Assembly (NCBI GenBank): GCA_025360845.1
Contig: JANYBJ010000148.1
Span: forward strand, 1 to 60,453
Length of the DNA: 60,453 nucleotides
From: a bacterium
GTDB taxonomy: Bacteria > Verrucomicrobiota > Kiritimatiellia > RFP12 > UBA1067
Direction of reading: 5' to 3'
Below the pieces are notes generated by a model that was given only the letters and a program-made list of their open reading frames with translations, was not told where the DNA came from and searched no databases. Made by a program: the position numbers and the translations under genes. Of the stretch, positions 1,940 to 11,812 are shown in pieces (positions within the stretch are counted from its first letter, which is position 1; each line of letters starts with the position of its first letter).

Positions 1940-2670
1940 GATTTCCTGATGAACTACCGCGAAGGCGCGACCGGTCTGCCGCTGGCGAGTTACGACTTGT
2001 GGGAGGAACGGTACGAGGTGCTTACCTTCACGGCGGCGGCGGTGTATGGCGGGCTGACAGCGGCGGCGGGTTTTGTCGAGGCCTTCGGCGAGCTCGAATG
2101 GGCTGAGGATTATCGGCAAGGGGCTGCCACTTTGCGTGAAGCCGCGTGCCACCATCTCTACCTGCAGGAGTCGCACTGTTTTGCGCGGGGAATCCTCTTT
2201 CCCGAAGAGGGCGAGCCGGTCGTGGATCGCGTCGTGGATGCGAGCATCTGCGGTTCCTACCTGTTTGGTCTCCTGCCGCCGGATGATCCGCGTGTGGCGG
2301 AGACCGTTCAGCGCGTGCGCGAGCGGCTCTGGTGCGCCACGTCTGTTGGAGGGCTGGCGCGTCTATGAGGACGATGCGTACTATCGCACGGGCACGGACA
2401 CGCCGGGAAACCCGTGGTTCGTGACCACGCTCTGGTATGCGCAATATCTGATCGCGAAAGCGCAGGCGATAGACGAACTGAAGCCGGTCATGGATCTTCT
2501 GGAGTGGACGGCGGCCCGCGCCCTGCCCAGCGGGGTGCTGGCGGAGCAGATCGATCCCCGTTCCGGAAAACCGATCTCGGTCTCCCCGTTGACGTGGAGC
2601 CACGCCGCCTTTGTCACAACCGTCTGCGAGTACCGTCAGCGACGGCAACAGTTGGAAGGTAGTCTAACGC
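1940..2670 (+). pseudogene. Glycoside hydrolase family 15 (glucoamylase-like) C-terminal remnant, N-truncated and frameshifted
   Basis: GLPLASYDLWEER and DAS...LFGLLPPDDPRV...GGLAR in one frame; YEDDAYY...GNPWFVTTLW...LAEQ...SVSPLTWSHA in the next. One extra base at about 2363 (cgt-c-tat). Confidence 0.85.
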
Positions 2671-2685
2671 GGGCGGAGCCCGCAA

Positions 2686-2720
2686 CCCTCACCCCGACCC
2701 TCTCCCAGAGGGCGAGGGAG
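2686..2720 (+). repeat. CCCTCACCCC...CTCTCCC..AGGG.GAGGG palindromic interspersed repeat
   Basis: ccctcaccccgaccctctcccagagggcgagggag resembles a widespread REP-like family often found near DUF559 genes. Confidence 0.7.
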
Positions 2721-2843
2721 GGGGCAACAACGTTCTTTTTATCACTGTTACGAAGCCGTAAGGCACTAAAATCACGCGTCCGCGCTCCGGCAGCGAGGTA
2801 GCCCCGGCAGGGCTTTGACCTGGCAGGTCTGGCGGCCGCCGGG

Positions 2844-5240
2844 TTACCGCTTCGCTTTCTCAGGACGCGACACAATCTTGAATTGCGTGATCGAGGTGTC
2901 GACGCGTTGAAGAAGGCCTTCCGCCTCTCGGAGCGCGTCTTTCGCCCGCTCCGTCTGCTTCTGCAAGGCGTTGGCGCTTTCGGTCGTGGCTGGAGCGGAG
3001 GTGTCGGCCTCGCGCAATCGCGCGATCTCGGCGGTTAAGGCCTGGATTTTCTGTAAGTCCCCGTCGATCTGTTTGCGGATCTCTTGCGCACGCGGCGTAA
3101 ACCCCACAGAGGTCGAGTGCAGAAGGTTCGCCGCTGTGATTAATCGGGGATTGTCCTCTGCGGTCGGGCTCCAAGCCACGGCGAGATGATCCTCGCCCTC
3201 AAAGTCCCTGAGAAAAGCCTCGACAAAGTAATAGCGGCCTTGAACAAGCGACACAGGCTTCGACTTCCGTATTTCCTTTTCCCATGACTGCGGGCCGACA
3301 TAATGGTCGAGATCGATGCACAGGGCCAGTTTTGCAGGGGTCTCGTCAGAGCTCAGCCAGAACTCCCCCTGATCGTCGCAGGCGATGTAGAAGGTATACT
3401 CGCCGGTTACGGAGGGGGTGAGAAATCCCCGGACCCGCGCGATGTAAAAATTGCTGTGGTTCGCGGGCACTTCAAAATTCTCGATGGCCTGGCTGGAGTC
3501 CGGTGGTTTTTTCAGGACCCCTTGTTTGCGCGCCTCGTTCAAAGAATCGAATTTGGCGTTCTCCCAGTATTCGAGGGTCAGACCGGGAACGAGACCGGTG
3601 ACCGGCGCGAGATCGGCTTGGCGCTTGGTCGCTTTCTCGGCCAGTGCGGCCGCGGATGCGGACAGGCGGACCAGTTCCAGGCGGGCACTCTGGATGCGGG
3701 ATTCGGCCATGACCTTTTCGGGGGTTCCTCCCAATACGAGTTCAGCCAAATGTTCAAAGCGGGAGTTGGCCGCGATGGCGCGCTCGCGGTATTTCAGCGC
3801 CAGATCGACTCCCCCCGTGATCTCTTTGCAAAAGATGGCTGCGGCTAAGAAAAGCGTGCCTTTTGTCGCGGAGTCACCCGCGGCCTTGGGCACGGTCGCG
3901 TTCACCAGACGCAGCATCTGGTCAGCCGGGATCTTGTCCCATGCGACGATGCGGCCCGGCGCGACCGTCACGCCCTCGTCATTTGCGCCGGTCACGTCCA
4001 CCTGTCCGCCGAAGGCGACCCAGACACCGCGGAGCGGCGCACGTGCGAGTTCCTCCTGCACAAATACCCGAAGTCTGGCCAGCGTCTCGAAGCGCAGGAT
4101 CGCCGTGTCGATGATGTCCTTCGCCTCGGGGTCTTGCCAGTTGGTCCTTTTGGCTTTCAGGATCTGGGAGGCTTCGGCGAAACGGTAAGCCACGCCGTTG
4201 AGGCGCATCTGCTCTTCCACAGCCGCCCTTGCCGGAGCCAGTGCCGACGAGAGCCCGTCTTTGGGTTTTCCCTGCTCAGCCGTATCCGGTGTCGCCACCT
4301 GTGTGCCCGCTGTCGCCGGTTGTCCGGTTGTTACTGCCGCCTGAACCGCTGTCTGGGTCTCCTGCCAAGGCTGGAGGAAAGGCTCGTCGATGATAACCGG
4401 CTGATCCGAACCGGGCAGCGTCCAGCCCACCCGCAAATAATCGAACCCTTCGCCTTCTTTCATCAGGGCCTCCAGATAGTACCGCTTCCCGGCGACCAGA
4501 TCACAGGCTTCGGACAGCAGGTCGGCGCGGTAGTCCCAGCTTTCGACAAAGTTGTCGACGGTGATCAGCTTACGCAGGTTGGCGGGCGTGTCGTCCGTGC
4601 TCAGCCAGAACTCGGCGGTGTCGTCGACACAGACCGCGAATCGGTATTTGCCCGATTGAGACGGCACAAGATAACCCCGCACGCGCGCGCCGTAATGGTC
4701 GCCAATATTATCCGACAGCTCAAAGCGTCTGATCTGGACGGTCCGGCTGGGCTGTCCAGGAAAAGTGGGGGCCGAAAGGAGTGCCCTGATCGGTTGTTCG
4801 GGGATGCCCTCATAATACTCGCAGAGCAGGCCGTGGGGACTGCCCACAGGAACCTCTCGCGGGAGGGCCGTCTGTTGCTGCTGGTTTTGCGTGGGTTGCG
4901 GTGTTGGCTGCGGTTCCGGGTTCTGGCCTGTGGTCTGTTCCTGTTTCGGTTCAACGGACACAGGCGCCTTCGGCACAGGCGCCTTCGAGGCGGGCGGTTG
5001 TTCGACGTTGGTTTGCCGGGAAGAGGCGGGAGGAGGTGCCGGTTTCTTCGAGCCTCCGGAAACACCGATTCCGATGCCGATAACGACCAGCAAACCCACA
5101 CCGATGGCGGCGGGAATCACCCATTTCAGCCCGTTTTTGGGTCTTTTGGGAGGGGGTGGCGGATGGGAAGTCGGCGGATGGCGCAGGTCCTTGTGTTGGA
5201 TCTTCTGAGTGAAGCCTCTGTCAATCTTGATCGTGGACAT
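2844..5240 (-). CDS. Membrane-anchored protein with two PA14 carbohydrate-binding domains
   Basis: N-terminal TM segment (WVIPAAIGVGLLVVIGIGIG), Pro/Gln linker, two PA14 repeats (GLLCEYY...YGARVRGYL...DD.AEFWLS...GKRYYLEA; GLTLEYW...ARVRGFL...DDQGEFWLS), C-terminal coiled coil. Confidence 0.85.
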   Translation of the reverse strand: MSTIKIDRGFTQKIQHKDLRHPPTSHPPPPPKRPKNGLKWVIPAAIGVGLLVVIGIGIGVSGGSKKPAPPPASSRQTNVEQPPASKAPVPKAPVSVEPKQEQTTGQNPEPQPTPQPTQNQQQQTALPREVPVGSPHGLLCEYYEGIPEQPIRALLSAPTFPGQPSRTVQIRRFELSDNIGDHYGARVRGYLVPSQSGKYRFAVCVDDTAEFWLSTDDTPANLRKLITVDNFVESWDYRADLLSEACDLVAGKRYYLEALMKEGEGFDYLRVGWTLPGSDQPVIIDEPFLQPWQETQTAVQAAVTTGQPATAGTQVATPDTAEQGKPKDGLSSALAPARAAVEEQMRLNGVAYRFAEASQILKAKRTNWQDPEAKDIIDTAILRFETLARLRVFVQEELARAPLRGVWVAFGGQVDVTGANDEGVTVAPGRIVAWDKIPADQMLRLVNATVPKAAGDSATKGTLFLAAAIFCKEITGGVDLALKYRERAIAANSRFEHLAELVLGGTPEKVMAESRIQSARLELVRLSASAAALAEKATKRQADLAPVTGLVPGLTLEYWENAKFDSLNEARKQGVLKKPPDSSQAIENFEVPANHSNFYIARVRGFLTPSVTGEYTFYIACDDQGEFWLSSDETPAKLALCIDLDHYVGPQSWEKEIRKSKPVSLVQGRYYFVEAFLRDFEGEDHLAVAWSPTAEDNPRLITAANLLHSTSVGFTPRAQEIRKQIDGDLQKIQALTAEIARLREADTSAPATTESANALQKQTERAKDALREAEGLLQRVDTSITQFKIVSRPEKAKR

Positions 5241-5318
5241 AGTCGGCCTTTTCCTTTCCCTTGTTCAAGTTATAGCCCACCCGCTGAGGGGATAAGTGAG
5301 GGGTGATCAATCAAAGCT

Positions 5319-5605
5319 GTTCAGCGGGAAATAACCCGTGTGAACGCATTTAGACATCGCCATCAACAAACCCGAGAATCAGGTGCATGGTGATAGAGCG
5401 TAAACACATTTTCCGCCTTCGTCAAGCGGGCAAGTCACTTGTGTCGGGGTGTCGGGGGGCGCATGGCCGTTCTGATGAGGTCGGTGACTCGTAATCTTGC
5501 TCAACAGAACGGCGATGCGCCGCGGAAGGAATCAGCGGTTGACTATAATTCGAGAAGCCTATTACCTGTCCCGTTGTGCATTATAGCAATTATTTCCCGT
5601 TGAAC
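5319..5605. repeat. 16-bp inverted repeat pair bounding most of the divergent intergenic region
   Basis: GTTCAGCGGGAAATAA (5319-5334) vs TTATTTCCCGTTGAAC (5590-5605), 15/16 reverse-complement match. Confidence 0.7.
5397..5425 (-). promoter_or_regulatory. Putative sigma70 promoter for the PA14 gene
   Basis: TTGACG-17 nt-TACGCT on the minus strand. Confidence 0.5.
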
Positions 5606-5628
5606 GCGGCCGCGTAATGGGATATTCT
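5600..5628 (+). promoter_or_regulatory. Putative sigma70 promoter for the TIGR04255 cassette
   Basis: TTGAAC-17 nt-TATTCT, followed by purine-rich SD-like GAAGGGG and ATG 5659. Confidence 0.55.
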
Positions 5629-5658
5629 ATTTTGGCTGAAAGAGTAAGGGTGAAGGGG

Positions 5659-6438
5659 ATGGAACAGATCAGTCAGCCATGCATAAACAGAGCGGAAAAT
5701 TTCGCGCAACTTCCAAAGTCGCCGCTTGTGGAAGCTGTTTTGCACATTCAGAGCCGACCGACGCAACCGATTGTGCCAGCCGAGTTGCGTGCGCGTCTGG
5801 ATGGTGAGTTAAGCGGTTACGCGTTCTCGAATGAGTTGTTCGAGTGTACCAACGAGTTTACCTTTGGAAAAGACGGCGCCCAGAAATCTAAGGCCAAAAC
5901 CGATTGGAAAGGTCTGCGCTACACGTCTGCAGACGGCAAACAAGTCATTCTGTTCAACAAAGACGGTTTCGTTTTCAGCAGACTCAAGCCTTACCTCTCC
6001 TGGGATTGTTTTGTCAAGGAAGGCTTGGCTGCGTGGAATGTATTTAAGCGTGTTGCCCAACCGGATTTGGTCATCCGCATTGGCCTGCGCATGATTAACC
6101 GCGTCACCATACCGATCGGGACTTTCCAAATAGAAGATTACTTGGCGACGGCACCGCAAGCGCCGAAAGGGTTTGATATTCCTTATCAGGGGTTTATGCA
6201 TCATGAATCCTTCGCTCTGCCCGACACGCCTTATGGAGTCACTGTAGTAAAGACCATCCTTCCGCCCGTTAAAGGTGAGCCCGGACCGGCCATTGTTATT
6301 GACATCGACGCGTTTTTGACGCCCAACGAAATGGTTGGGGACGAGACACTGGTGGAGCTTTTGACCGACATGCGATGGATAAAGAACAAGGTCTTCTTTG
6401 GCACGGTTACTGCCAAAACCTTGGAGGCTTTCAAATGA
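5659..6438 (+). CDS. TIGR04255 family protein
   Basis: PLVEAVLHIQ, FVFSRLKPYLSWDCF, RIGLRMINR, VIDIDAF, RWIKNKVFFGTVT are characteristic of the family. Confidence 0.85.
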   Translation: MEQISQPCINRAENFAQLPKSPLVEAVLHIQSRPTQPIVPAELRARLDGELSGYAFSNELFECTNEFTFGKDGAQKSKAKTDWKGLRYTSADGKQVILFNKDGFVFSRLKPYLSWDCFVKEGLAAWNVFKRVAQPDLVIRIGLRMINRVTIPIGTFQIEDYLATAPQAPKGFDIPYQGFMHHESFALPDTPYGVTVVKTILPPVKGEPGPAIVIDIDAFLTPNEMVGDETLVELLTDMRWIKNKVFFGTVTAKTLEAFK

Positions 6439-6926
6439 TTAGGACCATCGTAGGAATTGTGACCTTGGCGCATCCCTCCATGTCGGCGGGGGTGAGCGAA
6501 AGCGCATTCATGATCAAGAAGCAAATGGAAGAGGAGCGGACACGCTTGCAGCAATCCTGCGCCTGGGGCGGAACATCGCAGGACTTGCTGACCAGCATTA
6601 TTCACGTCGAGCAGGAGTGTTGTAACGCCGGTTGGGACGGTTATGACGCGTTGCCTGTCTCGGGTGAATCTGTCCGCCTCGGCATCGCCCTGTCCAAGTC
6701 GCTGCCGTGGGGATTTCATAAGCCTACGGTTGGGGTTGAGCCGGATGGCCAGCTCACCTTCGAATGGTACAAGTCCCCTCGAAAGACCTGTTCGGTCAGT
6801 GTAGCCCCTGACGGTACGTTTCACTATGCGGCCTTGAATGGTGCCAGCAATGTTTATGGTTCGGAGCTGTTCAACGGTTCGATGCCAGCCACCATCCTTA
6901 ACGCCATCGACAGCGTTTATTCATGA
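6435..6926 (+). CDS. Hypothetical protein with GWDGYDALP motif (middle gene of coupled triplet)
   Basis: ATGA overlap with both neighbours; motifs GWDGYDALPVS and EPDGQLTFEW. Confidence 0.8.
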   Translation: MIRTIVGIVTLAHPSMSAGVSESAFMIKKQMEEERTRLQQSCAWGGTSQDLLTSIIHVEQECCNAGWDGYDALPVSGESVRLGIALSKSLPWGFHKPTVGVEPDGQLTFEWYKSPRKTCSVSVAPDGTFHYAALNGASNVYGSELFNGSMPATILNAIDSVYS

Positions 6927-7333
6927 GTGCCGTTGCCGTCCAGCCTGTAGGTGACGATGAGGTCTTGGCACGGTTTGTACTCAGAAAAGACTGGGTGCGA
7001 AACGATCAGACTCTTCGTCCCGAGGCTTTCATACCCCATCCGCACAAGGATCTGTCGGTTTCGCGTCATCAGGCTCGTCCCGATACGGAGTTGTGGGAAG
7101 AAGGTAAGGCGGTGGCAGCAGCGGTAACGGTGACTGTGAGGAGAGTCATGCAACTTCACGGCCGAGCAGATTTTATCGCGTCTGACGTGATCGGCCAGAA
7201 TTTGCGCGTCGAAGCCGACCCGCTTCCGGAAAATCCGAGTCACGCCGTCGTTGTGGGGTGGCCGCCCGAAAAAGCGGTTCAGAAAATCAAGGCATTGATG
7301 CTTGCCGCTGCTGCTCGATTTGTACCCCTCTGA
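6923..7333 (+). CDS. Hypothetical protein, possible ADP-ribosyltransferase/RES-like fold
   Basis: ATGA-coupled. Pattern E-V-L-A-R ... PEAF ... DLSVSR ... NPSHA..GWP resembles an R / SxS / H ART-type core. The fold is inference. Confidence 0.7.
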   Translation: MSAVAVQPVGDDEVLARFVLRKDWVRNDQTLRPEAFIPHPHKDLSVSRHQARPDTELWEEGKAVAAAVTVTVRRVMQLHGRADFIASDVIGQNLRVEADPLPENPSHAVVVGWPPEKAVQKIKALMLAAAARFVPL

Positions 7334-7337
7334 TCTG

Positions 7338-7780
7338 TCACAGCCCAAGCTTCGGCAGCGCCTTCACGATCTTCATGGTTTCGATGCTGAGCGTGACGAT
7401 GCGCTTGAGCAGGTCGATGATGTAGCGCGGCTGGTTGTGCTCGTCGCACCAGAGGTTGGGGTCGTTGACGATGCCGCTCTCTTTGTGGGTGGTGACGGCG
7501 TAGCGCTCCATGATCCACTCGATGGCGTGAAGAAGCTGCGGGCATCCGACGTGAATTTCTCTTCCGGCGCGAGCGGGATGAGTTCTGCGTAGCCTTCGTC
7601 GCGGTGGTTGATCCAGTCGCCGTGCTTGTTGGGCTGGAGGATGGTGAAAGCGCCTGCCTTGAGCATGGCGCCGACGGAGCCGAATTCCTTGATGCGGGCG
7701 AGCTTCTGCTCGCGCGTCAGGTAGTCGCCGATGTCGTGGTAGTAGAGGGTGGCGTTGTCGTTCATGGGGTGGGCTTCCGG
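7338..7780 (-). pseudogene. Type ISP (LlaGI/LlaBIII-like) RM enzyme C-terminal remnant with large internal deletion of the target-recognition region
   Basis: ATLYYHDIGDYLTREQKL...PNKHGDWINHR joins at about 7527, out of frame, to the extreme C-terminus AIEWIMERY...SGIVNDPN...PRYIIDLLKRIVTLSIETMKIVKALP. Confidence 0.85.
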
Positions 7781-8367
7781 CTGGGAGGACTGGGTGATAT
7801 GGGAGGGCTGGACAGGGTAACTTTGTTTCTGGTCTGCTGACGCGCCGCAAACAGGCGCTCCCTAAAGCCGCCCTGCGCCAGGAATTTCGTCTCCAGCGCT
7901 TCCAGTTGGCGCTGGAGCAGGTAATCTGCCTGATGCAGCAGGCAGAGGCACATGTTGGCCGTGGTCTCGGTCGGGCGTGTCTTGGCGATGTCCAGATACC
8001 AGGTCGGCGGCACGGAGGCGTCGCGGGATTTGTCGCGCAGATAGCAGGCTTCGCGCGAGTCCTTGTCCCAAAGCCGCAGCCCTCGGACGCGCAAATAATC
8101 CTCGTAATCGATGCGCAGTTCAACCAGGTTGGCTTTGGCGACATTCGTCAGCTTGATCTCCGTCTCCGCAGAGGTCACGGCGGCCGCGCTGGCCTCAGCG
8201 ATATTCTGTTTGCCGCTGCGCGCAGCCTGCACCATCTGATCAACCGTACGGTCGCCTTTGTTTAGGTGCGCATGCGCGAAATAGAAGGTCAGGTCATAGA
8301 TGATCTCCGCCTTCTGATAGGTCAGCAGCCTTTTGAAATCCCCGCGGGGGGCAAGCAGTCCGCGCAT
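7762..8367 (-). CDS. Four helix bundle protein (23S rRNA IVP/Avd-like, TIGR02436) with four-helix-bundle suffix domain (TIGR04258)
   Basis: DRTVDQMVQAARSGKQNIAE, ELRIDYEDYLR, QGGFRERL; GGAGG SD upstream of ATG 8367. Confidence 0.92.
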   Translation of the reverse strand: MRGLLAPRGDFKRLLTYQKAEIIYDLTFYFAHAHLNKGDRTVDQMVQAARSGKQNIAEASAAAVTSAETEIKLTNVAKANLVELRIDYEDYLRVRGLRLWDKDSREACYLRDKSRDASVPPTWYLDIAKTRPTETTANMCLCLLHQADYLLQRQLEALETKFLAQGGFRERLFAARQQTRNKVTLSSPPISPSPPSRKPTP

Positions 8368-8414
8368 GGCTTACCTCCGCCACCAGTAGTCCCAGTGTTC
8401 CCAGTACGCCCAGT
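7781..8414 (-). mobile_element. Intragenic insertion carrying the four-helix-bundle gene, bounded by complementary 9-nt periodic arms
   Basis: On the minus strand, 5' arm (8383-8414) ACTGGG-CGT-ACTGGG-AAC-ACTGGGA-CTA-CTGG and 3' arm (7781-7811) CCAG-CCC-TCCCATA-TCA-CCCAGT-CCT-CCCAG. It splits the type ISP gene. Confidence 0.75.
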
Positions 8415-10305
8415 GTTTTTCTTCACCAGGATCGTGACGGCGATCGGCGTACGGCTGCCGAGCCCGAAGATGCCGCCGCCTTCGCGTTGGCGAAGCTCGC
8501 CGCTCGTGCGGCAGTTCCCGCGCAGGTTGAAGACGTAGATGGCGGAAAATTCCTTCTGGATGGTCTTGCGGAAACCTGCCATGGCGTTGCCGTCGAGCCA
8601 CGCGCCGTTGGAGACGAAGGCCACGATGCCGCCGTTCTCGGGGTCGAGGCGGTCAGATGCCCAGCGGAAAGCCTTGATATAGGAGTCGTAAAGAGAACGG
8701 ACGAGCGTGGCGTCGCTGGCGGCGACGTAGGTGTCCTCGATACGCTTTTCGAGATTCGGGTAGCTCTGGTTCTGGGCATTGTCGTTGGCGGACTTCTGTC
8801 CGACGGAATACGGCGGGTTGCCGATGATGATGCGCAACGGGGCCTTGCGCTGGGCGCGGACGCGCTTGGAGTTGTCCACGAAGCCGTCGTTGAGATCAAG
8901 GGTGCCTTCGCCCTCGCCGAGCTGGAAGGTGTCGGTCAGGCAGACGCCCTCGAACGGCTGGTCGGGCTTGTCAGGCGTGCGCTCGTGATAGGCGTTCTCG
9001 ATGTTGATGGAGGCGATGTAATAGGCCAGGAGCACGATTTCGTTGGCGTGCAGCTCCTTGGCGTATTTGCGTTCGAGGGCCTTGCTGCTGATGAGACCGG
9101 ACTGCAGCAGGCGGGTCATGAAGGTGCCGGTGCCGGTGAACGGGTCGAGGATGTGGATGTTTTCGTCCGAGAGGTCGCGGTTGAATTCGCTCTTGAGCAC
9201 GTCGGCCACAGAGTGGAGCATGAAGTCCACGACCTCGACGGGCGTGTATACGATGCCGAGTTTTTCGACGACCTTGGGGAAGGCGGTCTTGAAGAACTTG
9301 TCGTACAGCTCGACGATGGTCTTCTGCTTGGCTTCGCCGTTGTCGATGCCCTTGGTGCGCATTTTGACGGATTCGTAGAACTCGTGCAGGATGACGCGGT
9401 CTTTTTCCAGCGTAAGGGCGGAGAGCTTGTCCAGCATGCCCTGCATGGCTTTCGAGACGGGGTTGTTCTCGACGAACTTGTAGTATTCGAAAAGGGCGTC
9501 GAAGACGGGCTTGGTGATGAGATGCTGGGCCAGCATCTGGATGGCGTCGTCCTGGGTGATGGACGGGTTGATGTTCTGGAGCAGGCCCTTGAGGAAGGTG
9601 TCGAAGGCCTTCTTTTGCGGGCCGCCCTGCGCGATGAAGGCGGTGATCTGCTCGATGTGGCGCTCGGCGATCTTGGCGACGTCCCGCGCCCACTGTTCCC
9701 AATAGCGCTTGTTGCCGACCTTCTCGACCATCTTGGCGAAGATGACGTGGCAGAGGGCGCCGAGGTCGGCGAAGTTCTTCTTCTGGACTTCGGCCTCGAA
9801 GCGGGTGCGGTCTTCGTCGTCCCAGGTCTGGCCGGCGGAGGAGCCGCCTTTGCTGTCGATGACCGTGACCTGGTCGGGCAGGCGCTTGCTGAGGTTGATC
9901 TTGTTGATGAGCGCGTCGAAGCGGTCGTCGTGGGCGCGGAGCGCGTTCAGGACGGTCCAGACCACGCGGAAGCGGTCGTTGTCGTCCAGCGCGTCTTCGG
10001 GGGCGGTGCCGGAAGGGATCAGCACGGGGATGATGATGTAGCCGTATTTCTTGCCGTGCGAGGTGCGCATGACGCGGCCGACCGACTGGACCACGTCGAC
10101 CTGCGAGTTGCGGGGCGAGAGGAAGAGCACGGCGTCGAGGGAGGGCACGTCCACGCCTTCGGAGAGGCAGCGCACGTTGCACAGGACGCGGCACTCGCGG
10201 CTGGACCGTCCGACGGATTTGAGCCAGGTCAGTTTCTCCTCGCGGGTCAGCGCGGACATGGTGCCGTCCACGTGGTCGGCGGTGACGTCGACCAGCGCCT
10301 TCTTT
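8322..10305 (-). pseudogene. Type ISP RM enzyme (SF2 helicase C-terminal part plus N6-adenine methyltransferase), N-terminally truncated
   Basis: CLSEGVDVPSLD, VDVVQSVGRVMR, GIVYTPVEVVDF, ILDPFTGTGTF, IIGNPPYS, YVFNLRGN. Nuclease and ATPase N-terminus absent; begins abruptly after an AT-rich patch at 10310-10435. Confidence 0.9.
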
Positions 10306-10435
10306 GCACGTACTCCCCTTGAAAAAAGTCTTAGGCAGACGCCACGCCGTCAGCAACAGACTCGGAATAATAAGTAGATTAAAAATATCAAACTTCCATA
10401 GTAGCGTCACTGCGAAACGAATACATAACTTTACG

Positions 10436-11812
10436 CTACAGGCCGGGCTCCCCTGAGTTGAGGAAAAGGTCTCGAGCCTCAGCGATGCACGAAAACCGTC
10501 CCTCCAGTTGCGCGTCGTAAAGTTCATTCAGCAAGGTGCCCATGTCCGGTCCGGGCCGCACGCCCCAAGCCAGCAGGTCGCGGCCGCGCACGAGCGGCTC
10601 GGGCAACACGGGTTCGGACGTGAACGACTCGTGGGCCTCTTTAAGAAAACGCCAGGTCGAGAAATCGTTGTTGCTGTGGAGGATGTCCAGACGCATCAGC
10701 TCCATCATCCGGGGGAAGTGCGGCATGCCCAAAAAACGGCGAAGCTTAGCGGGCCGCATTTTTTTTGCCTCCACGAAGTGCATGTGGCCCAGCACCAGCG
10801 CCTTCACCTCCGCGATCCGCGCCGAGGGCTGCCGCAACCGCAGCAGGAGCGATTCCGCCAGCTCCGCGCCGACCGCCGCGTGACAGGGGAAGCGGATGCG
10901 CGTGGCGCCCGAATCGGGCTCGACCGTTTCGCAGGAGGTCACGGGTTTGCCGATGTCGTGCAGCAGCACCGCCAGCGCCAGCACCGGGTCGCGCGGCGTT
11001 GCCAGCTCGTCCAGCATCAGACACGTGTGTGTCCAGACGTCGCCCTCGGGGTGGAACTGCGGCGGCTGCGCCGTCCCGGCCAGCGCCGCGACCTCGGGGA
11101 GGAAGTGCGCCAGCAGGCCGGTTTCGCGCAGAAGCGCCAGCCCGGCGGACGGCCGCGGCGACTCGCACAGCAGCCGGATGAACTCGGTCGCGATCCGCTC
11201 CGCGCTCACACTGCCGATCCAGTCCGCATGACGCTTCACCGCGGCGCAGGTTGCCGGCTCGATTTCAAAATCCAATACGGAGGCGAAGCGCACGGCCCGC
11301 AACAGCCGCAGATGGTCCTCGCGGAAACGCGCCTCGGGCTCGCCGATGGCCCGGATCACCCGTGCGCCGAGGTCGGCCAAGCCGCCCACATAGTCGATCA
11401 CTTCGCCGCTTTCGGGCTGGCAGAAAAGGCCATTCACCGTGAAGTCCCGGCGCTGCGCGTCGCCCTCGGCGGTGGCGAAGGTCACGCGCTCGGGGTGCCG
11501 TCCGTCGGCATACGCGCCGTCGGTGCGGAAGGTCGCGACATCGAACTGGAAGCCGTCGCGCCGGACCAGCACCACGCCGAACGCCTTGCCCACCGCCACG
11601 GTCTGTCTTGGGAAGAGCGCTTCGACCTGGTCCGGCGTGGCCGAGGTCGCGATATCGATGTCTTTGATGGCGCGTCCCAGCAATGCGTCGCGAACGCAGC
11701 CGCCCGCGAAGAGTGCCGAGGCTCCGGCGCGGGTCAGGTCGCGCGCCAGGCCGCGCGCGGCCGCCACCATCGCCGCGTCCGAGGGATGGAAACGTGTCGT
11801 CTGGGTATTCAT
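10436..11812 (-). CDS. cca: CCA tRNA nucleotidyltransferase / poly(A) polymerase family with HD domain
   Basis: GGCVRD, DIDIAT, RRDFTVN, EDHLRLLRAVRF, SAERI, HPEGDVWTH, LLHDIGKP. Confidence 0.9.
   Translation of the reverse strand: MNTQTTRFHPSDAAMVAAARGLARDLTRAGASALFAGGCVRDALLGRAIKDIDIATSATPDQVEALFPRQTVAVGKAFGVVLVRRDGFQFDVATFRTDGAYADGRHPERVTFATAEGDAQRRDFTVNGLFCQPESGEVIDYVGGLADLGARVIRAIGEPEARFREDHLRLLRAVRFASVLDFEIEPATCAAVKRHADWIGSVSAERIATEFIRLLCESPRPSAGLALLRETGLLAHFLPEVAALAGTAQPPQFHPEGDVWTHTCLMLDELATPRDPVLALAVLLHDIGKPVTSCETVEPDSGATRIRFPCHAAVGAELAESLLLRLRQPSARIAEVKALVLGHMHFVEAKKMRPAKLRRFLGMPHFPRMMELMRLDILHSNNDFSTWRFLKEAHESFTSEPVLPEPLVRGRDLLAWGVRPGPDMGTLLNELYDAQLEGRFSCIAEARDLFLNSGEPGL

Follow-up and report, generated by a model that had tools for sequence, protein, structure and literature searches.

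The three-gene cassette analyzed here lies on a 60,453-nucleotide stretch (contig JANYBJ010000148.1, positions 1–60,453; hereafter the window, by which we mean this whole stretch at its full length) from a bacterium of the Kiritimatiellia. It combines a gene of the TIGR04255 family, a gene for a protein with a WDGY motif and a gene for a small protein predicted to adopt the ADP-ribosyltransferase (ART) fold (genes 1, 2 and 3; Table 1). Among toxin-antitoxin (TA) systems, SecB-like chaperones are a known promiscuous third component, and the omega-epsilon-zeta modules follow the gene order regulator, antitoxin, toxin. Classical ARTs feature the signatures R-S-E or H-Y-E at strands 1, 2 and 5. 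As given in excerpts of the respective reports, the chaperone of the CmdTAC system senses a phage capsid protein, upon which the antitoxin is degraded and the ART modifies mRNA (PMC11618068; bioRxiv 10.1101/2024.02.24.581848); KptA is an ART lacking the catalytic Glu that transfers ADP-ribose to a phosphate (PMC9503650); and prrC is found inside a Type IC locus, with its product firing upon the inhibition of restriction (PMC12707154). The excerpted part of the NetFlax paper covers two-gene systems.

We favor, with moderate confidence, the interpretation of this cassette as a tripartite TA or abortive-infection module, in which gene 3 codes for the toxin, gene 2 for the antitoxin and gene 1 for an accessory component shared with other modules. 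This interpretation is based on gene structure, predicted folds, the conservation of the trio across genomes, the swapping of modules behind TIGR04255 and the genomic contexts of the relatives. What is new here is that TIGR04255 heads cassettes ending in PIN, MazF or HEPN.

Conservation of the trio and exchange of its last gene

We found the three open reading frames (ORFs) of the cassette on the forward strand and joined by two ATGA overlaps, just as reported in a preliminary description of this DNA. A GGAGG is located 9–13 nt 5′ of the gene 2 ATG; gene 3 lacks a Shine-Dalgarno sequence and must depend on translational coupling. A scan of genomes with a gene 3 profile recovered 72 loci under approximately 12 phylum-level labels (as the depositors wrote them). 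Across these, gene 2 lies upstream of gene 3 in every locus with room for it (67/67), and gene 1 lies upstream of gene 2 in 59 of the 63 loci with room, with order and strand constant. The coupled junctions recur as well, with −4 overlaps at the gene 1/2 junction in 34 of 56 related loci and at the gene 2/3 junction in 47 of 66. The preliminary description had named two computable findings that would speak against its idea of a defense system, an absent ART fold and a triplet that is not conserved across genomes. Neither emerged: the neighborhoods reveal a trio conserved in the same order, and the predicted fold is of the ART type (see below). The toxicity of gene 3, its neutralization by gene 2, a sensing role for gene 1 and phage protection are inferences. 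The only isolate among the hits is Geomonas sp. Red32 (L027). The four loci without gene 1 are L049, L055, L061 and L068. In the first of these, a TIR-domain protein (L049:3567-4556(+); TIR_2, E 2e-13) occupies the TIGR04255 slot, immediately upstream of a shortened gene 2 relative and a lengthened gene 3 relative.

Of 301 genomes from the window's own phylum, 10 contain TIGR04255, and none of 12 genomes from its family does. In a second phylum it is present in 51 of 301 genomes (17%), where it is often multicopy, with up to four copies per genome; it was not found in G257, a genome of the window's genus. Such a sporadic distribution is the pattern of accessory genes. Positions 2640–10495 of the window have no counterpart in G257, in which the two flanks fall on different contigs and no clean empty site is seen. 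As described earlier, the third codon positions of the cassette are richer in A/T than those of its flanks: the G+C content at third codon positions is 0.585, 0.671 and 0.555 for genes 1–3 against 0.71–0.885 for five flanking genes, and the overall G+C content of the cassette is 0.50–0.57 against 0.62 for the window. We propose that the cassette is a horizontally acquired, intact and translationally coupled operon that is both small and mobile. In an unpublished genome that holds one of the relatives (G301; contigs C78, C9 and C61), there are four TIGR04255 matches, one of which is in two pieces with in-frame stops.

To delineate the company kept by TIGR04255, 41 loci from two phyla were examined. 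The pair of genes 2 and 3 follows it clearly in five of these (L078, L079, L082, L106, L111) and more weakly in two (L081, L084). In others, TIGR04255 is followed by a small unrelated gene and then by a third gene coding for a PIN domain (L075, L083, L101, L107, L108, L109), MazF/PemK (L093), a HEPN domain scoring below the Pfam cut-off (L074) or DUF7689 (L087). The TIGR04255 junctions in these other cassettes are mostly −4 overlaps too, and the middle genes of the non-ART versions are unrelated to gene 2. A middle gene that changes along with the last gene is the pattern expected if the former encodes the cognate antitoxin and TIGR04255 is the shared accessory. Generic genomic features of Type II-like TA systems are on display, namely small, adjacent, coupled and co-directional genes, a patchy distribution and partner swapping.

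Other arrangements also follow TIGR04255. In three loci (L076:460-1080(-), L077:506-1057(-), L080:789-1502(-)), the effector slot holds an unnamed family with an (N/A)-C-D-(I/L) motif, and the last of these modules adjoins a gene for an NgoMIV-type restriction enzyme and a cytosine methylase-like gene. In a two-gene form, seen in L086, L088, L089, L092, L094, L096, L098, L099, L102, L105 and L110, only one protein of ~225–238 aa comes after TIGR04255, in most cases across a −4 overlap. An Xre-type helix-turn-helix (HTH) was detected in five of these partner proteins, and in most of the two-gene loci the partner has, around residues 22–60, a strongly hydrophobic segment and after it G-(S/T)-S-S.

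Predicted folds and conserved residues

The gene 3 model (pLDDT 91.0, pTM 0.83) is predicted to be a split β-sheet ART fold. In comparisons with the PDB using VIA-align, its top eight matches are the NAD+ lobes of Tpt1/KptA (Z 7.6–8.2; root-mean-square deviation 2.7–3.3 Å over 91–94 residues), after which the scores drop clearly (AvrPphF, Z 6.3; RES toxin, Z 5.2). The wide list is mostly made up of members of the ART superfamily (KptA/Tpt1, Tse2, AvrPphF, RES toxins, Scabin, Tne2, DarT, CC0527, Arr, ParT and the toxins of pertussis, cholera and diphtheria). Structure prediction and fold search accordingly uphold the ART/RES fold that had been suggested for gene 3, with Tpt1/KptA at the top of a list that is nearly all ART superfamily and includes the RES toxins. 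Foldseek against BFVD returned one unnamed match (2.4e-4). The alignment to Tpt1/KptA covers only residues ~85–180 of those chains, and the two-lobe architecture is missing; having neither a profile match nor an RNA lobe, gene 3 falls outside the Tpt1 family, and the corresponding Pfam profile (PF01885) has no match in the window's own genome.

The motifs from which the ART-like spacing R...LSVS...H had been proposed are present in gene 3 (R17, L44-S45-V46-S47, H49/H107). An alignment of 76 relatives revealed as invariant E13, R17, A35-P38, L44, S45, G61, G80 and H107, among them both residues singled out earlier, R17 and S45. R17 lies in strand 14–19 (strand 1), S45 in strand 44–48 (strand 2) and H107 at the start of strand 107–111 (strand 5). 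Gene 3 belongs to no family in Pfam (E ≤ 1), NCBIfam or PHROGs; searches of PDB sequences and profiles were empty or at chance level, PADLOC gave only chance-level Cas5 rows (E 0.02–0.03) and a plasmid collection held no match. The gene 3 family comprises 2896 representative clusters (50% identity) at a profile E ≤ 1e-3. Sixteen members of 169–228 aa have no Pfam domain, and fused or longer forms of 239–2000 aa were not found, which is weak evidence.

The gene 2 protein consists of a variable N-terminal region of ~60 aa and a conserved C-terminal domain. The WDGY...DG...FEW core noted in the preliminary description is indeed present and conserved in the relatives (WDGY, 67–70; DG, 104–105; FEW, 109–111), with W67, G69, G105, W111 and G142 invariant across 75 sequences. 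Searches of Pfam, NCBIfam, PADLOC and PHROGs assigned it to no family, and PDB sequences gave no match; the ESM Atlas returned only the cassette proteins' own unnamed families. A hydrophobic N-terminal "addiction element" shared by the genes that follow TIGR04255 was considered and rejected for this cassette, since the hydrophobicity of the gene 2 family is 1.02. The non-WDGY partners of TIGR04255 are somewhat more hydrophobic at the N-terminus (median 1.75 vs 1.34–1.39; Mann-Whitney p ~0.006–0.008), and a hidden Markov model of the gene 2 N-terminus found nothing in the other TIGR04255 partners (best E 0.14).

Gene 1 is a full-length member of TIGR04255 in NCBIfam (113.7 bits against a cut-off of 30, E 1.2e-32, profile positions 1–252 of 252), in agreement with its earlier assignment, and the match was recovered at 113.4 bits in the genome scan; it has no match in Pfam, PADLOC or PHROGs. 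A full-text search of the main texts of papers found neither TIGR04255 nor its synonyms; NetFlax and defense-system supplements could list these families under other names. The AlphaFold model of gene 1, built on a 65-sequence alignment (pLDDT 93.6, pTM 0.89), is composed of two tandem halves, each with a strand-helix-four-strand-helix arrangement, and is predicted to form a TBP-like duplicated (pseudo-dimeric) β-sheet saddle. Foldseek matches include RepDE (7e-5), TBP (2.8e-4) and AdoMetDC (6e-4), and VIA-align matches include the McsB kinase domain (Z 7.8), the phosphagen kinase domain (7.6), RepDE (7.2) and TBP (7.0). As all these matches are weak, function cannot be read from the fold. SecB is absent from the structural matches listed, an absence that does not exclude this fold. 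Y112, D215 and F246 are invariant in the alignment of relatives, and E25, D92, R140, R144, N147, D217 and K242 are nearly so; the polar cluster E25, D92, R140, R144, N147, D215, D217 and K242 suggests a defined binding or catalytic site.

Genomic surroundings of the relatives and the window

For 64 loci, our scan covered the two ORFs closest to the trio on either side. Restriction-modification (RM) genes lie beside it in 16 of these, and in 7 of the 16 the trio is embedded in an RM operon, with hsdS upstream and hsdR downstream; one locus (L010) is from a genome flagged as unpublished, without which the counts are 15 and 6. Two further loci are flanked by DUF1156/DUF499 genes. A defense or mobile context is thereby supported, both by the embedding in RM operons and by carriage on a viral contig and in a phage record. 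The viral contig (IMG/VR; L085, 3935–5639) holds a complete trio, flanked on one side by an integrase-sized gene (552 aa, without a Pfam match) and on the other by a gene for a Tad2-like Thoeris anti-defense protein, with an LPD38 polyvalent-protein gene upstream of the trio. The phage record (ON170239.1, Ralstonia phage YO139_2, UNVERIFIED_ORG; L119, 194–2061) features a TIGR04255 gene, a WDG-type gene of 165 aa and a gene 3-like gene of 146 aa, which together are located at the end of this P2-like phage record. The next ORFs resemble, by eye, PAAR and DUF4123-type host genes, and this trio may lie at a prophage edge. In one other locus, the gene immediately downstream of the trio codes for a protein of 374 aa with a Macro domain at its N-terminus (L071:5483-6604(+); E 1.4e-17), an arrangement seen in none of the other loci scanned; Macro domains reverse ADP-ribosylation.

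In the window, the cassette is followed by the remnant of a Type ISP/IIG RM gene. Its two pieces, in the order 8325–10271 and 7376–7765, match positions 524–1165 and 1168–1244 of the 1646-position PADLOC profile REase_MTase_IIG, with ~523 N-terminal and ~400 C-terminal profile positions absent; in Pfam, they match ISP_coupler (7e-49), part of Helicase_C and Eco57I/N6_Mtase. The two pieces are separated by a four-helix-bundle gene, and a gene of the same family adjoins the trio in L032, beside hsdR. The preliminary description had the cassette ending 4 nt from this remnant. The remnant is indeed next door, but the 4 nt apply only to an unsupported alternative-frame ORF (7338–8144); the homology-supported fragment ends at 7373, leaving a real gap of 39 nt to the stop of gene 3. 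The PrrC-like feature of a location inside an active RM operon is consequently not found here, the neighbor being a truncated and split Type ISP gene.

Upstream of the cassette, its own promoter as reported earlier was not borne out: a consensus scan of 5200–7500 gave two weak sites, with 1.4 expected by chance, and the sole promoter-like site on the forward strand (5351–5379) lies 280 nt upstream of gene 1. The same intergenic region contains a hairpin (5458–5479/5500–5521, within 5455–5521) with 22-nt arms that are 91% complementary. Its first half is a dispersed repeat with at least 13 more copies in the genome at 78–88% identity, several of them within ~250 nt of contig ends, and it looks like a repetitive extragenic palindrome (REP)-like element. 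The cassette is framed precisely, at the start of gene 1 and the stop of gene 3, by an imperfect 17-nt inverted repeat (5656–5672/7330–7346; 82%, with a perfect core of 9 nt). This feature was considered and rejected: it is absent from 48 related loci, which are no richer in such repeats than offset controls, and the controls attain its 9-nt core in 6 of 144 cases. It is probably due to chance.

Table 1. Coordinates of the cassette and of the adjoining remnant in the window
Feature	Position	Strand	Remarks
Gene 1, TIGR04255	5659-6438	+	259 aa
Gene 2, WDGY protein	6435-6926	+	163 aa
Gene 3, mini ART-fold protein	6923-7333	+	136 aa
ATGA overlap, gene 1 stop/gene 2 start	6435-6438	+	translational coupling
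ATGA overlap, gene 2 stop/gene 3 start	6923-6926	+	translational coupling
Type ISP/IIG RM gene remnant	7373-10271	-	two pieces, 7376-7765 and 8325-10271
Four-helix-bundle (23S rRNA IVP-like) gene	7762-8367		splits the RM remnant exactly between profile positions 1165 and 1168

Mechanism, rival explanations and known systems

The toxin-swapping behavior of TIGR04255, together with its siting in RM operons among the relatives, makes this cassette probably a new kind of TA-type defense module. Its effector would be gene 3, a minimal ART-fold protein that might use NAD+ to modify or consume its target. The most likely target would be a phosphate or a nucleic-acid end, as with KptA and the RES enzymes; we favor such a chemistry because these enzymes attack phosphate without a catalytic Glu. 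Gene 2 would be the cognate neutralizing antitoxin, since all its occurrences are with gene 3 relatives and its translation immediately precedes that of gene 3. Gene 1 would serve as the generic third component (a sensor, chaperone or regulator) that either senses the trigger or stabilizes or regulates the antitoxin, and would thereby arm the toxin upon infection or loss of a partner. As many relatives lie between hsdS and hsdR, an attractive version of this mechanism is a second-line module coupled to restriction in the manner of PrrC. In complex predictions in which gene 2 was the partner being scored, the trio reached 0.79–0.81; the score was 0.81 when an unrelated protein replaced gene 1 and 0.00 when gene 2 was replaced. 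These values speak neither for nor against binding.

A bolder formulation, which we regard as fairly doubtful in its entirety, would have TIGR04255 as a promiscuous TBP-like "arming" sensor that stands before many unrelated TA pairs (mini-ART, PIN, MazF, HEPN and others), converts them into suicide modules triggered by infection and guards Type I RM systems, and the mini-ART as a new R-S-H, NAD+-dependent toxin of nucleic-acid phosphates. Under this formulation, TIGR04255 positioned between hsdS and hsdR would guard the Type I enzymes against phage anti-restriction, and the toxin would have been built from a bare Tpt1-like NAD+ lobe.

Several results weigh against the interpretation as a TA-type defense module, whose support is all computational, coming from genes, predicted folds and contexts. 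With respect to the toxin, searches of Pfam, NCBIfam, PADLOC and PDB profiles connected gene 3 with no ART family at the sequence level, and when its alignment was compared with three KptA sequences by hhalign, the probability was 0.09%. Its fold Z-scores (≤8.2) are in the range that VIA-align rates as "middling", and Foldseek found nothing in the PDB at E ≤ 1e-3, the best match being KptA at 0.13. The catalytic Glu of the ARTs is absent, a His standing at the third position in place of Glu, Gln or Asp, and the placement of R, S and H on the strands follows from the order of secondary structures without superposition. On the side of the accessory, gene 1 has weak fold matches (Z ≤ 7.8, TM ~0.3) that range from enzymes (phosphagen kinases, AdoMetDC) to DNA binders, such that the protein may have either an enzymatic or a regulatory role, and the N-terminal recognition element envisaged as common to TIGR04255 followers failed for the gene 2 family. 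As for context, about three quarters of the loci are in ordinary housekeeping neighborhoods, the count of RM neighbors comes without a background rate, and the RM neighbor in the window is dead, leaving any RM-coupled role orphaned there.

The rival that survives best, which we nevertheless consider rather unlikely, holds that the cassette is a selfish addiction module without phage sensing, stabilizing itself and the DNA around it (RM operons, islands, prophages) by post-segregational killing, with TIGR04255 as an autoregulator like omega. The position of TIGR04255 as the first gene, the resemblance of its model to the DNA-binding saddles of TBP and RepDE and the regulator-antitoxin-toxin order, as in omega-epsilon-zeta, would all fit, as would the sporadic distribution and the many housekeeping surroundings; the HTH in five of the single ~225–238 aa followers likewise points to regulatory links. 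However, a 250-aa protein with the above polar cluster would be unusual as a simple repressor, and embedding in RM operons and carriage by phages and viral contigs are typical of defense genes. Addiction and defense can coexist and are not mutually exclusive.

We judge it improbable that the trio is instead a module for NAD+-dependent healing or repair of RNA ends, or for other non-toxic nucleic-acid processing, in which gene 3 would remove or cap terminal phosphates, and genes 1 and 2 would bind the substrate in place of the RNA lobe. The closest folds to gene 3 are the NAD+ lobes of Tpt1/KptA, and the excerpted source presents KptA as an RNA-repair ART acting on phosphate (PMC9503650); the predicted TBP-like saddle of gene 1 could likewise bind nucleic acid. 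Against this, the slot of gene 3 is taken in the sister cassettes by the classical toxins PIN, MazF and HEPN, and there is no conserved RNA ligase, 2H or Macro partner (the Macro neighbor being confined to 1 of 64 loci, L071). Moreover, gene 3 has no sequence relation to PF01885 and lacks the N-terminal lobe of Tpt1, which holds most of the catalytic tetrad. Highly improbable is the reverse assignment of roles, with TIGR04255 itself as the enzyme or effector (e.g., kinase-like), modulated by the downstream genes, and gene 3 as an NAD+ or nucleotide-binding regulator: for all that the best VIA-align matches of gene 1 are the catalytic domains of phosphagen and protein-arginine kinases (Z 7.8 and 7.6 over 177–186 residues), that it conserves Arg, Asp and Glu residues and that gene 3 lacks the ART catalytic Glu, these matches (TM ~0.3, Z < 8) are rated by the tool as a possibly common arrangement, the partners of TIGR04255 elsewhere are well-known autonomous toxins, and 4 of 63 loci have genes 2 and 3 but no gene 1.

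Should the interpretation as a tripartite TA or abortive-infection module hold, three uncharacterized families would gain a role at once, two of them without a Pfam family and none in PADLOC or PHROGs. TIGR04255 would become a second promiscuous third component of TA systems, structurally unrelated to the SecB-like chaperones, and its cassettes a new testable system for how TA modules sense phage. The mini-ART would extend the chemistry of ART toxins, possibly to phosphate or nucleic-acid ends, and the hsdS-trio-hsdR arrangement would offer a model for defense layered on restriction.

Among the known systems, Tpt1/KptA provides the best structural match of gene 3 in the form of its NAD+ lobe (Z 7.6–8.2), but gene 3 is only 136 aa long, without the N-terminal RNA lobe and without a PF01885 match, and conserves R, S and H, whereas the KptA sequences compared show an H, H, hydrophobic pattern. 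The toxins of the RES-Xre systems (MbcT-MbcA, VPA0770-VPA0769 and P. putida Xre-RES) are similarly small, stand-alone ART-fold TA toxins acting on NAD+ with phosphate; their fold matches to gene 3 (Z 5.2, 8gug; 4.2, 6fkg; 4.1–4.2, 9r35) are lower than those of Tpt1, and the cassette differs from them in having no PF08808 match in gene 3, no Xre HTH or DUF2384 in gene 2 and an extra gene, TIGR04255. DarTG resembles it as a TA-type phage defense with an ART toxin that modifies nucleic acid, DarT chains matching gene 3 at Z 3.6–4.9, but the cassette contains neither a match to DarT (PF14487) nor a Macro-domain antitoxin, a Macro neighbor being seen in only 1 of 64 relatives (L071).

The likeness to PrrC in EcoprrI is one of position, and of position in the relatives rather than in the window: in 7 loci, trio relatives have hsdS on one side and hsdR on the other, and in 16 of 64 they adjoin RM genes. 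The proteins of the trio are unrelated to PrrC; the trio has no ABC-ATPase or anticodon-nuclease domain, consists of three genes rather than one, and most of its relatives are not RM-linked. With omega-epsilon-zeta, it shares the order accessory, antitoxin, toxin, all small and coupled, but no homologous component, TIGR04255 being a protein of ~250 aa with a predicted TBP-like fold and not a ribbon-helix-helix repressor.

PADLOC includes models for CmdTAC (PD-T4-9). The preliminary description had proposed a system analogous to CmdTAC, with TIGR04255 as chaperone or phage sensor. The analogy is functional at best, as gene 1 is predicted to be TBP-like, SecB is missing from its match list and the trio proteins match no model of PADLOC-DB 2.0.0. 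The cassette departs from CmdTAC and other toxin-antitoxin-chaperone (TAC) systems in its third component, a predicted TBP-like duplicated fold that is not visibly SecB-like and is encoded first, whereas the chaperone gene comes last there; in a gene 3 that is closest in shape to Tpt1/KptA, with a His at the Glu position; and in a gene 2 in which no chaperone-addiction-like element was found. Common to both are a set of three small genes transcribed together, which code for a toxin of the ART type, an antitoxin dedicated to it and a further protein that recurs in cassettes with different toxins, and a sporadic, defense-associated distribution.

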